64,000 nt of DNA from the sequence record NC_070993.1; one strand, 5' to 3'. Under the pieces are notes generated by a model. That model was not told the DNA's origin and did no database searches. It was given only the letters and a program-made list of their open reading frames with translations. Shown piece by piece: positions 51,379 through 61,153 of the stretch. Each line of letters begins with the position of its first letter. Positions within the stretch are counted from its first letter, which is position 1. Both the position numbers and the translations under genes were made by a program. The DNA comes from Escherichia phage vB_EcoP_IMEP8.

Positions 51379-51582
51379 TTAGTAGAACGAACGAATTTCA
51401 TCCCACACTTGTTCCTGTTCTTTCCTATAAAAAGAAAGTTGGGTCTTGAACATCTCCACTGATGATTCAAAGTTTTTGGTTTGTGCAGCTTCAACGAAAC
51501 GTTCATGTCGGTTGATTTTGCACCGTAGCATTAAATACTTGGCTTCAAGTCTCCGAAGAGCCTGCCTTTTCTCAAGATTCAC
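51379..51582 (-). CDS. hypothetical small helical protein (67 aa)
   Basis: ORF from track between GGCT-like gene and primase-helicase. Confidence 0.4.
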   Translation of the reverse strand: MNLEKRQALRRLEAKYLMLRCKINRHERFVEAAQTKNFESSVEMFKTQLSFYRKEQEQVWDEIRSFY

Positions 51583-51991
51583 TTTTCAGATACTCTGACC
51601 AGTCGCCAGATTCAACCAGAACATCTTGTTCTTCGTCGATATGATAAATCCAAGCGATAACAGTTTCACCTGAGTCCATCTTGACAGCAATCTGAGTGCG
51701 TTGATAGAAGCTGTCTTCAGGGCTGCGTTTGTTGTAACCTTCCAGTCGGTCATATGGACCTTCCAGACCTGCTTTGTCAGTAGCAAACACTTCTACACGA
51801 ACAGGCTTATTGTTATTGCTGTGTGCGAGAGAGATGCTTGGGAAGTAGGAACCACCGTAACGGAACAGATCGAAGTTATCTTCAGTCCAACCTTCGCCAA
51901 TAGACTTAGCACCAGCTCGGTCATTAACTAAATAGTTAGCTTGACCACGACGAAGAGAACCATAAGTTGCTACGTAAATTACTTCTGACAT
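51572..51991 (-). CDS. gamma-glutamyl cyclotransferase-like (GGCT/AIG2 family) protein (139 aa)
   Basis: N-terminal VATYGSLRRGQANY signature of the AIG2/GGCT fold; conserved acidic residue region downstream. Confidence 0.6.
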   Translation of the reverse strand: MSEVIYVATYGSLRRGQANYLVNDRAGAKSIGEGWTEDNFDLFRYGGSYFPSISLAHSNNNKPVRVEVFATDKAGLEGPYDRLEGYNKRSPEDSFYQRTQIAVKMDSGETVIAWIYHIDEEQDVLVESGDWSEYLKSES

Positions 51992-51992
51992 T

Positions 51993-52202
51993 TTAAATAC
52001 CTTTCCAGTCTTTCATGATGTTTTCAATGTAAGCACACTGCTGATCAGTGGCTCCTGTTACAAACACTTCAAATCCCAACTGTTCACAGAAGGGGTTAAG
52101 AATCAATATTCTGGTTTGTCCGTACGAGTGGTGATCTCGGTAGATAATACACCCAGAATCCCATACAGAATCAATGGCTTTACTTAATCTTTCATGTTTC
52201 AT
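51993..52202 (-). CDS. hypothetical small protein (69 aa)
   Basis: ORF from track. Confidence 0.4.
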   Translation of the reverse strand: MKHERLSKAIDSVWDSGCIIYRDHHSYGQTRILILNPFCEQLGFEVFVTGATDQQCAYIENIMKDWKGI

Positions 52203-52255
52203 AAAACCTCCAGCTTATCCGAATTAGCCCCCTCTTTCGAAGAGGCTAAAGCAGA

Positions 52256-52441
52256 TCACTCTGTAGTAAAGATTTTGATTACACCGCAGATTGCTGCACT
52301 TTCAAATACTGCAACAGCTTCACTTCCTTGAAAGAAGGCCACTTTACCATCAGAGAAGTTAAACATGTCAGCATCTAGGTCCATAGCTCGCATTTCACCA
52401 GCGGTATTGGTATCTTTAAACAGAACTTTATACTTATTCAC
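52256..52441 (-). CDS. hypothetical small protein (61 aa)
   Basis: ORF from track. Confidence 0.35.
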   Translation of the reverse strand: MNKYKVLFKDTNTAGEMRAMDLDADMFNFSDGKVAFFQGSEAVAVFESAAICGVIKIFTTE

Positions 52442-58166: not shown

Positions 58167-58175
58167 GATAACCTC

Positions 58176-58982
58176 TTATGCTACCTGAAGGAGTTTGATC
58201 TGCTGGTCAGCTTCTTTAACGTTGTTTCCGTTAATGATTTCATGAAGCTTCTCAATCGGAAGGCGAGAGTGCAACGCCATCAGAGTGGACATATCACACT
58301 GCTGAACAACCTTGTCAACCTGATCGTAAACAAACTTACGGTTTTCACGATCACTAATCCAGAAGTTAGACAGCGAACGGTATTCGATACCATAGTCTTT
58401 ATAACGGATTGCAGATGCTTTACCGTAGAGTTCTTTACGGCGAGTATCTTTGTCCATAATTACTGCTGGGAGGGATAGGAAGTAGTCACACAGCACACCA
58501 AGCATCATCTGAGTTTGCAGAGTGATATCCAAAGCACCAACTACGCCAAGATGTACGTGACCACCGGCAGTACGAAGCCCCTTGTTCTGAGAAGTTGGGG
58601 ATGGGTTTTTCTGACCAGTGAAAGCGTTGAAGTCAGGAGTGCATCCAAAGATGAACGCTGATTCATTAAAGGTCTTCATCTCTTCTTCGGTGAAGATGTG
58701 AGAGCTGACACCCGGAGCTGTTTCCATGTCCAGTTTGTTCAGGACGCTGTTGGTGAGATCAATACCACGTTGCATGTTGTCGTTAAACGCTTCAAAGCCG
58801 CTCTGTGGGTCAATATCAAACTCAGCCAGTACGTTGTCCTCTTGAAGACGAACATCCTTAGCCAGAGTGATCTTGTCGTCCTTAGAACAGCCTAATAGAC
58901 CAGCTACAGAGGTGATGATACCGTTGCTAGTACGAACGAACATTTCAGGGTCAGAGCCGATAAGGAATTTGCGCTTAGTCAT
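58176..58982 (-). CDS. hypothetical protein, possibly second carboxylate-amine-ligase-like enzyme (268 aa)
   Basis: N-terminal FLIGSDPEMFV and later GGHVHLGV resemble metal/ATP-binding segments of GS-like ligases; weak. Confidence 0.4.
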   Translation of the reverse strand: MTKRKFLIGSDPEMFVRTSNGIITSVAGLLGCSKDDKITLAKDVRLQEDNVLAEFDIDPQSGFEAFNDNMQRGIDLTNSVLNKLDMETAPGVSSHIFTEEEMKTFNESAFIFGCTPDFNAFTGQKNPSPTSQNKGLRTAGGHVHLGVVGALDITLQTQMMLGVLCDYFLSLPAVIMDKDTRRKELYGKASAIRYKDYGIEYRSLSNFWISDRENRKFVYDQVDKVVQQCDMSTLMALHSRLPIEKLHEIINGNNVKEADQQIKLLQVA

Positions 58983-59946
58983 TGTAATACTCCACTAGTT
59001 CAGAAAAGAGAGATGAGATTGTGTTACCAACTTCTTCAGGAGTAAGACCGGAGTCTGCTCCAGTTCTTTGAATCAGTCGGGCTGTAAAGTTTTGTACTGT
59101 AATGTTTCCCAACTTGTCGTCTATTGCTTCACGTTTGTGACCATAACAGTTGGACCAGAGTCTTAACCACTCTGACATTGTTTCATACTCGTCCGGGTCT
59201 TGATCTTTAGCACGAGCAAATCTTCGTAAGGCATCTTGGTTATGGTTACGAACATAACCATTCTCGTTGTCGCCAACACCGAAGGGGTTTTGAACCCATA
59301 CTTGTTTCGTGTATTCATCAGAGTCAACAACCAAAGGAAGGAATGCTGCTGCTGACATATTGTTATTAACAACAATAGAGGTGCTCTCACTACTCCCATT
59401 GGCTCTTCCTCGTTGAGACCATCCACCGAAGAAGTCACGACCCAACCCAGCTAACACTAGAGCGATTCCGATGCGTTTACGCTTCAGCCACTCTTCCCTG
59501 TCTTCAATTCCTTCTGCTAGGAAATCCATTCCACGATATTGCCCTTCCAGAATACTACGAAAGAGCATAAGTCCTGTGAAGATTTGATCTGCTGGATGCT
59601 CACGGAGGTTGACAGCTACACTATTCGCTGAAGTGATTGTAAATACGTCACGATAGCAAGACATGGAGTTCATAATGTCCGCTGTTTCAACCAAGTTCTT
59701 TTCAATATCAGATGCAACATGACCATGAAAAGAGTGAGTCCAGTAATTCAACATCTCCAGTTGCAAGTTGATGTCACGGTTGAAGCGTCTATAACGCCCC
59801 TCTTCCGTGATAACTTCGCCATCAATATCATTTACGCATTGGCCTTGCATATAGTTGTGGATACCGAAGCACCCACGACCTAAGAACTTCTGTTCCCCTA
59901 AGTCTTGTTGAAGGTTTAGAGGTACGATCGTTGTGGAGATTGACAT
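58975..59946 (-). CDS. hypothetical protein of the amidoligase module (323 aa)
   Basis: ORF from track; 8-nt overlap with downstream gene. Confidence 0.5.
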   Translation of the reverse strand: MSISTTIVPLNLQQDLGEQKFLGRGCFGIHNYMQGQCVNDIDGEVITEEGRYRRFNRDINLQLEMLNYWTHSFHGHVASDIEKNLVETADIMNSMSCYRDVFTITSANSVAVNLREHPADQIFTGLMLFRSILEGQYRGMDFLAEGIEDREEWLKRKRIGIALVLAGLGRDFFGGWSQRGRANGSSESTSIVVNNNMSAAAFLPLVVDSDEYTKQVWVQNPFGVGDNENGYVRNHNQDALRRFARAKDQDPDEYETMSEWLRLWSNCYGHKREAIDDKLGNITVQNFTARLIQRTGADSGLTPEEVGNTISSLFSELVEYYND

Positions 59947-59956
59947 AACTAACCTT

Positions 59957-61153
59957 TTATTTTCCTAAAAATAATCCGCTCATAACACCATCCCACTCAG
60001 AGGAAGGAATCACTGAATACTCCGAACTTTGGTCCAGAGTCCCACTACTAAATCGCTGAACAATGTTGTAGATATTGAACAGGTCTTTAGCCTCGGCACG
60101 AATGCCGTAGATTAGCCTGTTAGCTGTTTTCTCATTTTTAGACACGCGACGGGTAAAGTTAACCAAAAGGTTGTCACCTTTAAGTATCTCTGACCCATCT
60201 TTTACTAGATCGGGGTGCATCACTGGCAAGAACATTGAGTTGTTAACTCGCAATTCTGCTGTTTCATCATTCTCATAATGAATCCACTTAAAGTCTTCAT
60301 CACGGAAGTGACCACATCCATCTCTGTACGACTGCTGACGCCAAGGCACTTGAAATGCTTCAGCATATTTATCAGCCATGCCGACTGTAAACAGCGACGC
60401 TGGGAAGATACAAGCATCCCAATCGTTACCAACCAGAGTTGCTTTCGTTTCCCCCAAGAGATTGGTGTAAGTACTAACCATTCGGGAATAAACGTAAGCC
60501 TGAAGGATTGTCCACCCCTCAACCAACCATTTATGAAGGAAGATTTCAACCTGACTCTCTTCATCTTCGCAATAGAAGGTTCGATCTAACATCAAATAGA
60601 ACAGACAACGATCAGCAGGAACATTCTCAGTTGCTACACCCATAAAACCTTTTTCGTGCCAGCGTAAACAGGAGGGACGATCTTTGTCCACAAATGCTTC
60701 CATAGCTTCCAGTACAGCACGAGGTGTGGTTCGATGCTCAGGGTTTTTGTCGTTCCAACGTTCGATGTTATTTTTAAGCTCGCCTTCGTAATCAATAGCA
60801 CCCCAACCTAAAGCTGCGGATACAGGTTTTTCATCACGCCAACGTCTAAAACCTAACATCTTCATGTGAGTTCCGGAGTTCCAGATATGCTTGATTTTAC
60901 ACATATCCATCTCTCGGCTTAACAGGAACTCTTCCCCATCAGCACTACGAACGTTAGCTTCTTCATGCCACACTCGAACGTGCATATTCCACCCATGAGT
61001 TGCCTCATACATGTTCGGGTCGAAGTAGTCATCATATTCGTCATCGTCTTCATCAACGCCACCGTTATAGTTGCGAAGCTGAAGGAACCCATAACAAGGA
61101 GGGTGGACCGTTAAAACATTACCTTCAGTATCTTCTAATGTTACTGGAAACAT
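59957..61153 (-). CDS. hypothetical protein of the amidoligase module (398 aa)
   Basis: ORF from track; acidic N-terminal segment, several conserved-looking Cys/His/Asp. Confidence 0.5.
   Translation of the reverse strand: MFPVTLEDTEGNVLTVHPPCYGFLQLRNYNGGVDEDDDEYDDYFDPNMYEATHGWNMHVRVWHEEANVRSADGEEFLLSREMDMCKIKHIWNSGTHMKMLGFRRWRDEKPVSAALGWGAIDYEGELKNNIERWNDKNPEHRTTPRAVLEAMEAFVDKDRPSCLRWHEKGFMGVATENVPADRCLFYLMLDRTFYCEDEESQVEIFLHKWLVEGWTILQAYVYSRMVSTYTNLLGETKATLVGNDWDACIFPASLFTVGMADKYAEAFQVPWRQQSYRDGCGHFRDEDFKWIHYENDETAELRVNNSMFLPVMHPDLVKDGSEILKGDNLLVNFTRRVSKNEKTANRLIYGIRAEAKDLFNIYNIVQRFSSGTLDQSSEYSVIPSSEWDGVMSGLFLGK

Follow-up and report, generated by a model that had tools for sequence, protein, structure and literature searches.

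What a phage does with a compact set of amide-forming and amide-cleaving enzymes is the question raised by a 9.6-kb block at positions 51572–61153 of the window, the 64,000-nucleotide stretch of Escherichia phage vB_EcoP_IMEP8 (NC_070993.1) analysed here. The block is filled by 13 co-directional open reading frames (ORFs) on the minus strand, labelled A to M from upstream to downstream. The ORF map bore out the tight packing and start/stop overlaps reported in a preliminary description made from the sequence alone, with B and C overlapping by 8 nt, D and E by 4 nt, G and H by 20 nt, and J and K by 4 nt. M shares 11 nt with the next downstream ORF and the remaining gaps are mostly 1–10 nt. The products are soluble and cytoplasmic, none of them containing a signal peptide or a hydrophobic segment of transmembrane strength. 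Our preferred, if tentative, reading is that the block encodes one co-expressed cytoplasmic multi-enzyme pathway, which would build and then process a short gamma-glutamyl or peptide-like amide conjugate on an amine or carboxylate acceptor.

The window can be assigned to a phiEco32-like coliphage of the C3 morphotype, genus Kuravirus, subfamily Gordonclarkvirinae, on account of the identity of the block to Kuravirus genomes and of protein A to its phiEco32 homologue (91%). Over its full length the block aligned at 94.5–96.1% DNA identity with the 25 Kuravirus genomes that matched best, Paul, SU10, NJ01, SGF2 and Bas91 among them, and at least 80% of it was covered by 64 of the 98 matching records. 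The corresponding cassette of phage Paul is 96% identical at the DNA level. The block is therefore a rediscovery of the phiEco32-type cassette, and the novelty implied by the preliminary description does not hold, since this cassette is phiEco32's own and was published in 2009 and 2013. In the passages of later genome papers that deal with it (PMC5498523, PMC11945000, PMC11318856, PMC10580990), its prediction is credited to Iyer et al. 2009 (Mol Biosyst) and Hardies et al. 2013 (J Virol), and it is named the ‘peptidoglycan modification cassette’. The carriers listed in these passages and in that of PMC3890496 are phiEco32, 7-11, PA11, tf, LUZ24, PaP3, CW02 and RIO-1. All five enzymes that define the published cassette co-occur here, namely type-1 and type-2 glutamine synthetase (GS)-like ligases, an ATP-grasp ligase, a class-II glutamine amidotransferase (GATase) and an AIG2-like cyclotransferase. 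The gene content does not differ from that of the phiEco32 cassette, after which the family PF14395 is named, and the block is syntenic with the phiEco32-group genomes, 7-11 and PhiCHU. The preliminary description was correct in recalling a computational account of amidoligases alongside GATase or AIG2 partners. The probable paralogous pair formed by A and B, the character of protein D, a DUF7195 protein and an ATT start codon, all described below, were not found in the secondary literature consulted. The value of the locus lies in the question of what it makes rather than in novelty, and this question is directly testable with the BASEL isolates that infect E. coli K-12.

Profile hidden Markov model searches placed the enzyme genes in the families that had been proposed for them, and in no unrelated ones. 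Protein E (367 aa; 56449–57552), previously proposed as an amidoligase, is a GS-like amidoligase of ‘type 1’, scoring above the gathering cut-off of PF12224 Amidoligase_2 (3.8e-8, 33.9 bits, cut-off 22) and matching phrog_7469 at 1e-159. Residues G29, D50, S52, E58, H95, H97, E186 and R188 are invariant in eight lineages. The preliminary description had also set aside four proteins of no recognisable family upstream of E; three of these, A, B and D, stand as such, but the fourth, protein C (268 aa; 58176–58982), is a second GS-like carboxylate-amine ligase. It matched PF14395 COOH-NH2_lig, ‘Phage phiEco32-like COOH.NH2 ligase-type 2’, at 2.3e-8 (34 bits, cut-off 25) and phrog_3815 at 4e-118, and its residues D11, E13, H142, H144, E200 and R202 are invariant in seven lineages of 25–63% identity. 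Because C belongs to PF14395, the block holds three ligases.

The third ligase is protein I (400 aa; 52693–53895; phrog_2599, 8e-185), which consists of an RimK/Ddl-like ATP-grasp region (~1–265), an acidic linker and an 82-aa C-terminal domain. The ATP-grasp assignment made in the preliminary description stood at the level of the superfamily, through invariant motifs, NCBIfam matches and PDB chains, but the Pfam matches fell below their gathering scores (Dala_Dala_lig_C 19.7 against 24; RimK 18.2 against 21). The NCBIfam matches were to MptN (1.4e-7, residues 69–251) and the RimK family (3.7e-7), the rimK_fam score being 29.8 bits against a cut-off of 143, and the segment carrying the Mg ligands aligned to the RimK-type PDB chain 7qys with an E value of 0.002. 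The hallmarks of ATP-grasp enzymes are present, with a Gly-rich loop, an ATP-binding Lys, a Glu-x-Arg strand and Asp/Glu/Asn ligands for Mg2+; K85, G129-x-G131, E157-x-R159, R190-N191, D229 and E241-x-N243 are invariant in six lineages. As its scores lie under the curated thresholds, protein I is assigned to a superfamily and not to a named family, and is predicted to be a member of the RimK/Ddl branch outside every named family. Its last 82 residues (52693–52938, minus strand) match a stand-alone 82-aa phage family, phrog_20552, at 6.5e-57. This domain follows the acidic low-complexity linker and is absent from the PhiCHU, PA11 and RIO-1 enzymes.

Protein F (676 aa; 54339–56369) comprises a class-II GATase domain of the N-terminal nucleophile (Ntn) type (~1–235), a middle domain and Cys-rich motifs. 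The Cys-1 Ntn amidotransferase with a Cys-rich C-terminus that had been proposed for this ORF was upheld, the N-terminus matching GATase_6 at 1e-14 and GATase_7 at 4e-6. When aligned with the N-domain of E. coli GlmS and with four other phage lineages, residues C1, R28, R85, T88, N110-G111 and D128 of F were invariant, corresponding to C1, R26, R73, T76, N98-G99 and D123 of GlmS. In GlmS, Cys-1 is the nucleophile, N98-G99 forms the oxyanion hole, and R73 and D123 bind the alpha-carboxylate and alpha-amino groups of glutamine. F is accordingly predicted to retain a pocket for the free alpha-amino and alpha-carboxylate of a Glu or Gln head group. A weak match to NCBIfam EgtC (2.5e-4) was far under its cut-off, and phmmer gave no useful match for the GATase domain among PDB sequences. 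No Pfam or NCBIfam match was found for residues ~240–676, of which the middle domain is conserved across four lineages. The C-terminus contains CxxC pairs resembling a zinc ribbon, of which only the last, C272 and C275 in the numbering of the aligned C-terminal segment, is kept without exception by the four lineages. Proper alignment thus left all the catalytic residues in place on which the preliminary description had leaned, with Cys-1, Asn-Gly and Arg/Asp of the Ntn domain present together with the Gly-loop and Mg ligands of the ATP-grasp enzyme; the catalytic residues of the cassette enzymes are invariant across lineages of 20–35% identity.

The ORF of F contains no ATG, GTG or TTG ahead of the Cys codon, and this TGT is directly preceded by ATT (56369–56367). 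An in-frame TAG lies two codons upstream of the ATT, and a Shine-Dalgarno sequence, AGGTGGA, 7 nt before it. The ATT is kept in the window, in Paul, in SU10 and in a divergent metagenomic contig, L011, the A protein of which is 32% identical; 7-11 and PhiCHU have ATG. Given the Shine-Dalgarno sequence, the upstream stop and this conservation, translation of F probably starts at the ATT, leaving Cys as residue 1. The RefSeq entry for Paul gp087 begins at an internal TTG (563 aa) and loses the nucleophile region, and the SU10 annotation is full length. The 79-nt spacer between E and F (56370–56448) contains the ribosome-binding site of F and two small hairpins. These were considered as a regulatory structure and rejected, since the fold of −22.9 kcal/mol was no better than that of shuffled sequence (z = −1.4). 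Downstream of F lies protein G (77 aa; 54103–54336), a DUF7195 protein (PF23825, 5e-17) with homologues directly downstream of the GATase in 7-11, PhiCHU and L011. Conservation of G does not extend to its C-terminus, and a role for G as a ubiquitin- or Pup-like tag was rejected for this reason.

The last enzyme gene before the primase/helicase gene encodes protein M (139 aa; 51572–51991), an AIG2/GGACT-like gamma-glutamyl cyclotransferase (GGCT), in keeping with the family first suggested for it. M matched PF06094 GGACT at 3.4e-17 (63.6 bits, cut-off 22.8) and phrog_2520 at 1e-44, with a weak PDB match to the UPF0131 protein 1v30. It contains the motif YGSLRRG (residues 10–16) and a Glu within DRLEGY; this Glu is catalytic in GGCT/GGACT enzymes.

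Proteins A, B and D, for which profile searches against PDB sequences gave no match, are the conserved members of the cassette with no recognised enzyme family. Protein A (398 aa; 59957–61153) is the product of the first gene and belongs to no recognised family. Its predicted structure is confident and had no match in the PDB; among viral models its matches were confined to uncharacterised proteins, two from GAP52 and the rest from LAh_6, LAh_8, a Proteus phage and CW02. The LAh_8 match has 322 aa, and its gene is one of a pair of ORFs immediately upstream of the type-2 ligase. Protein B (323 aa; 58975–59946; phrog_13102) has no Pfam match, and its profile search returned 23 clusters among 1.84 billion representative proteins. 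Of these matches ten were scanned, comprising nine family-sized relatives and one spurious MopE-repeat protein, and no relevant Pfam domain was found. A, B and the LAh_8 proteins gp004 and gp005 have in common a strand-P-(A/G)-D-x9-R signature with identical spacing (D120-x9-R130 in B), the Asp and Arg of which are invariant in both the A and B families. This signature, the Foldseek matches and weak hhalign matches to LAh_8 suggest that A and B are a diverged paralogous pair of a phage-only family, with B a probable distant paralogue of A. The assignment is provisional because direct comparison of A with B by hhalign showed no similarity; comparison of A and B with their positional analogues PhiCHU gp22 and gp23 likewise showed none. 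Protein D (205 aa; 57549–58166), always encoded between the two GS-like ligases, is predicted to form an SH3/Tudor-like barrel with an invariant basic loop and looks non-enzymatic. Residues 84–126 are the most conserved stretch and are predicted with low confidence; R106, K110 and G111 are invariant in five lineages. D is homologous to PhiCHU gp25, and hhalign detected no similarity to PA11 gp6. Its C-terminal -(E/D)SL is found within the Kuravirus-like phages and is not kept in 7-11, LAh_8 or PhiCHU.

The gene-neighbourhood comparison that the preliminary description had proposed gave a recurrent order. A-B-C-D-E-F-G...I...M-primase/helicase was found in Kuravirus, in Moazamivirus 7-11, in Bruynoghevirus PhiCHU and in the divergent contig from the Logan metagenomic collection, and the A-to-F portion occurs in the same order in LAh_8. 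This conservation argues that the block is not a chance arrangement. The position of M varies, the GGCT gene lying upstream of the cassette in LAh_8 and ~4 kb from the ATP-grasp gene in 7-11, with 12 ORFs between. C-D-E-F-G is retained across the compared lineages, and the five enzyme families travel together with D and G through lineages diverged to 20–30% identity. In the Zobellviridae PA11 and RIO-1 a smaller selection of the genes, arranged differently, lies beside the primase/helicase gene, with the GATase, C, a protein in the position of D, E and the ATP-grasp enzyme in both and the GGCT in RIO-1. A Geobacillus phage and Clostridium prophages have only an amidoligase and a GGCT.

Among 50,697 phage records, C was found in 305, E in 301, D in 114, A in 96 and B in 95, the near-identical counts of C and E coming from the same host genera. 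Since 96 records have a primase/helicase at least 80% identical to that of the window, a number equalled by A and missed by one by B, loss of the cassette within the Gordonclarkvirinae seems never to have occurred. The cassette as a whole is present in ~300 of the 50,697 records, spanning at least five lineages and including every one of the 96 subfamily records in the collection searched. The hosts of its carriers are Escherichia, Salmonella, Proteus, Cronobacter, Pseudomonas, Aeromonas, Vibrio and marine bacteria, and several carriers, including Kuravirus and Bruynoghevirus phages, are used in therapy cocktails. The cassette adjoins the primase/helicase gene in every lineage examined, this neighbour being ~45% identical between Kuravirus and the Bruynogheviruses; of the 723 phage records in which a related primase/helicase occurs, ~420 lack the cassette.

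From these enzymes and their arrangement we infer a single pathway, together with the order of its steps, its gamma-glutamyl chemistry and the class of its acceptor. The intact catalytic residues, the fixed gene order, the retention throughout the subfamily, the cytoplasmic location, the start/stop overlaps, indicative of translational coupling, the matched spread of C and E, and the minimal pairs of amidoligase and GGCT all support one pathway, and the natural chemical reading of the enzyme set would be that a gamma-glutamyl or peptide-like amide is built and then trimmed. C, E and I would each form one amide bond in an ATP-dependent manner via an acyl-phosphate intermediate. F would either hydrolyse glutamine to provide ammonia for amidating an activated carboxylate, with C, E and I as candidate partners accepting this ammonia, or hydrolyse a gamma-glutamyl amide. 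M would release an N-terminal gamma-glutamyl group in the form of 5-oxoproline, and this unit would then serve as a transient handle or protecting group. The A/B pair, D with its Arg-x3-Lys-Gly loop and the DUF7195 protein would probably form a complex with the ligases, holding or presenting the acceptor. As this acceptor, DNA or the assembled cell wall is judged less likely than a soluble metabolite or peptide, or than a loop on one of the cassette's own proteins, D for instance.

Addition and removal of a gamma-glutamyl group within one pathway has precedents. In butirosin synthesis the ATP-grasp ligase BtrJ adds a gamma-glutamyl protecting group and the AIG2/GGCT-like cyclotransferase BtrG strips it as 5-oxoproline, with the intermediates riding on a small dedicated protein, the carrier BtrI. 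The phage cassette is likened to this system by its chemistry; it contains no acyl-carrier protein or aminoglycoside genes and has two extra GS-like ligases and a GATase. In the ergothioneine pathway the GS-like ligase EgtA adds a gamma-glutamyl group and the class-II GATase-like hydrolase EgtC removes it. EgtA/EgtC and PuuA/PuuD both join a GS/GCS2-like ligase to a hydrolase of amidotransferase fold that acts after an intervening step. The cassette differs in having no EgtB/EgtD-like or oxidase partner, and in the ~440 extra C-terminal residues of F.

Several points weigh against a single gamma-glutamyl pathway. Adding and then removing a gamma-glutamyl group is futile without an intervening step, and none can be named here. 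The ligase families carry no information on the identity of the substrate, and phmmer found no solved relatives of C and E among PDB sequences. The conserved polar residues of A, B and D could mean that these are other enzymes, even ones acting on nucleic acid, and the co-location of the genes could stem from shared ancestry of the early/middle region and not from a shared pathway. Finally, the literature searched contained no experimental characterisation of the cassette, as the preliminary description had supposed.

The alternative that survives best is that host or phage proteins are the target. In this reading the GS-like and RimK-like ligases would attach glutamate, or else a short peptide, at a lysine side chain or C-terminus of the target, for which ribosomal protein S6, RNA polymerase and a replisome protein are candidates, and the tag would be taken off or recycled by F and M. 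Host-protein tagging is a serious rival given the RimK-like enzyme and the non-enzymatic partners, and we consider it unlikely. Among named proteins, I comes closest to the RimK-family alpha-L-glutamate ligases; RimK, the poly-alpha-glutamate ligase of S6, and LysX, which acts on LysW, ligate glutamate to a protein C-terminus. However, the matches of I lie far under the curated cut-offs (~30 bits against 143–350), and the block encodes no S6-like protein and no LysW-like protein with an acidic tail. The Pup ligase PafA is a member of the GS-like superfamily, and pupylation (PafA, Dop, Pup) resembles the cassette in pairing GS-like ligases with glutamine deamidation, on a protein. In the phage, the deamidase would be an Ntn GATase rather than a second GS-like enzyme, and no disordered Pup-like GGQ/GGE protein was found. 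Nor was any small protein resembling Pup, ubiquitin or LysW and ending in a conserved Gly-Gly, Gln or Glu found in the block: G varies at its C-terminus, and the C-terminus of D is kept in the close family and not across five lineages. Conserved non-enzymatic proteins, among them D with an invariant Lys in a flexible loop, would suit tagging, as would the action of GGACT on epsilon-(gamma-glutamyl)-lysine, whereas GGCT-family enzymes act on small free gamma-glutamyl compounds.

Peptidoglycan and DNA are possible targets that are weakly supported. According to the published prediction, the cassette modifies peptidoglycan precursors or the cell surface and so alters the envelope to exclude superinfecting phages, which we regard as improbable. 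The weak matches of I to D-Ala-D-Ala ligases agree with this prediction, as do the gamma-glutamyl bonds of stem peptides, yet the alpha-amino group of the stem-peptide D-iso-glutamate is acylated by L-Ala, and the pockets of F and of GGCT enzymes require a free alpha-amino group on the glutamyl residue. With all the block proteins soluble, only cytoplasmic precursors would be within reach, and the block contains no Mur-ligase, lipid-II or membrane enzyme. The published label sits poorly with proteins that are all soluble and with pockets suited to a free alpha-amino glutamyl group. The proposal itself goes back, in the relevant passages of PMC5498523, PMC11945000, PMC11318856 and PMC10580990, to Iyer et al. 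and Hardies et al., and no experiment on it was found in the literature searched. Seventeen years after the computational description, the label ‘peptidoglycan modification’ is recopied into new genome papers without evidence.

Hypermodification of DNA or of a nucleotide precursor with an amide-linked group, shielding the genome from restriction, is quite improbable. Its attraction is that the Gordonclarkvirinae show striking resistance to restriction-modification in the absence of any known modification pathway, according to the BASEL study (PMC11990801). This resistance is not due to an absence of sites, since the window contains 33 EcoRV, 8 EcoRI, 10 EcoKI and 100 EcoP1I sites, near the expected numbers. 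Other sites are nevertheless strongly avoided, as expected from restriction selection on unprotected DNA. Over the whole window (1–64000), CCWGG occurs 3 times against ~80 expected, PstI CTGCAG 0 against 17, SacI GAGCTC 0 against 13, BamHI GGATCC 0 against 11, GGTACC 1 against 7–11 and GATC 131 against 240–300; the avoidance of CCWGG, CTGCAG, GAGCTC, GGATCC and GATC suggests that restriction enzymes still select against these sites. No restriction-digest or nucleoside reports on Kuravirus DNA were found in the literature searched. In viromes, amidoligase and amidotransferase Pfam matches co-occur with thymidine-hypermodification genes, some of these clusters carrying such matches and adjoining replication genes as the cassette does (Lee et al. 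2021, PMC8989533). However, neither the source of 5-hydroxymethyldeoxyuridine nor 5-HMUDK or aGPT-Pplase was found among the neighbours scanned; across 10 neighbouring ORFs and the SU10 annotation of the region there was no dUMP/dCMP hydroxymethylase, TET/JBP or transglycosylase either. The preliminary description had pointed to the neighbouring ThyX and dCTP deaminase genes as a reason to consider hypermodification. These genes are not conserved partners of the cassette, as PhiCHU has the whole cassette with neither gene, nor any other nucleotide-metabolism gene, annotated, and ThyX (Thy1 family) and the dCTP deaminase of the window are themselves ordinary. The position beside the primase/helicase in every lineage examined favours a link to DNA, but the ~420 related primase/helicase records lacking the cassette oppose it. 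The zinc-ribbon-like motifs of F, and A and B with no assigned function, leave room for a specific version, in which A, B or the zinc-ribbon tail of F handles nucleic acid and the cassette adds to phage DNA, or to precursors of it, a novel amide-linked modification that would account for the restriction resistance; we hold this to be very improbable. Identification of the product would most likely reveal a new phage-made metabolite or protein modification, and less probably a DNA modification explaining restriction resistance.

Least probable of all is that the block is not one system but independent auxiliary genes that were co-inherited, for example for glutamine/glutamate rebalancing or glutathione degradation, because although the Kuravirus block holds inserted unrelated genes (the gp79 homologue, H, K and L) and the GGCT gene is displaced in 7-11 and LAh_8, the five enzyme families, D and G stay together despite 20–30% identity, the order C-D-E-F-G is kept, and C and E have near-equal record counts in the same host genera.

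The inserted genes are small. Protein J (82 aa; 52438–52686) is a homologue of phiEco32 gp79, its Paul orthologue being annotated as such (BLAST 1e-50). phiEco32 gp79 is an RNA-polymerase-binding transcription regulator, the product of a middle gene, and is absent from phage 7-11 (PMC8948821). J lies inside the block but is unlikely to be part of the chemistry. The other three are small lineage-specific ORFs, H (74 aa; 53898–54122), which matched phrog_13464 only, K (61 aa; 52256–52441; phrog_8591) and L (69 aa; 51993–52202; phrog_13365).

Six copies of TAATGTATA, which we take to be the single-element promoter of the phiEco32 sigma factor gp36, lie in the window where 0.7 would be expected by chance (8973, 20794, 26025 and 35956 on the plus strand, 35884 and 41545 on the minus strand). 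As none of the six copies lies within 50.5–64 kb, the cassette has no TAATGTATA promoter of its own. Scanning the block for sigma-70 promoters gave no excess over chance, 17 being found against 24 expected, and PADLOC defence-system models gave no matches. A terminator-like hairpin followed by a T run (GGCTCTTTTCGGAGAGTC TTTTTTT) lies at 61709–61726 on the minus strand, ~550 nt upstream of the first cassette gene, and terminator-like sites are commoner in 50.5–64 kb than in shuffled sequence (23 against ~10).

A 468-aa nucleotidyltransferase is encoded at 47663–49069 (minus strand), between the dCTP deaminase and proofreading exonuclease genes. It has a weak match to the poly(A) polymerase/CCA-adding enzyme head domain (PF01743, 2e-3) and belongs to phrog_12715; the BASEL authors speculate that it contributes to a DNA modification (PMC11990801). 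The replication and nucleotide-metabolism genes also include a SLOG-family protein related to YspA/cpYpsA (PF10686; 33492–33884, minus strand) and a ferritin-like-domain protein (45343–45942, minus strand). Upstream of the cassette, two adjacent paralogous small ORFs of ~79 and 84 aa (63334–63833, minus strand) share 25% identity (E 1.5e-5), and two more ORFs of ~80 aa at 62841–63331 are alike in size only. Further adjacent paralogous pairs occur at 40582–41125 and 46304–46758 on the minus strand and at 22293–24332 on the plus strand, the last of these lying in the late region and encoding proteins of ~350 and 325 aa that are 32% identical.

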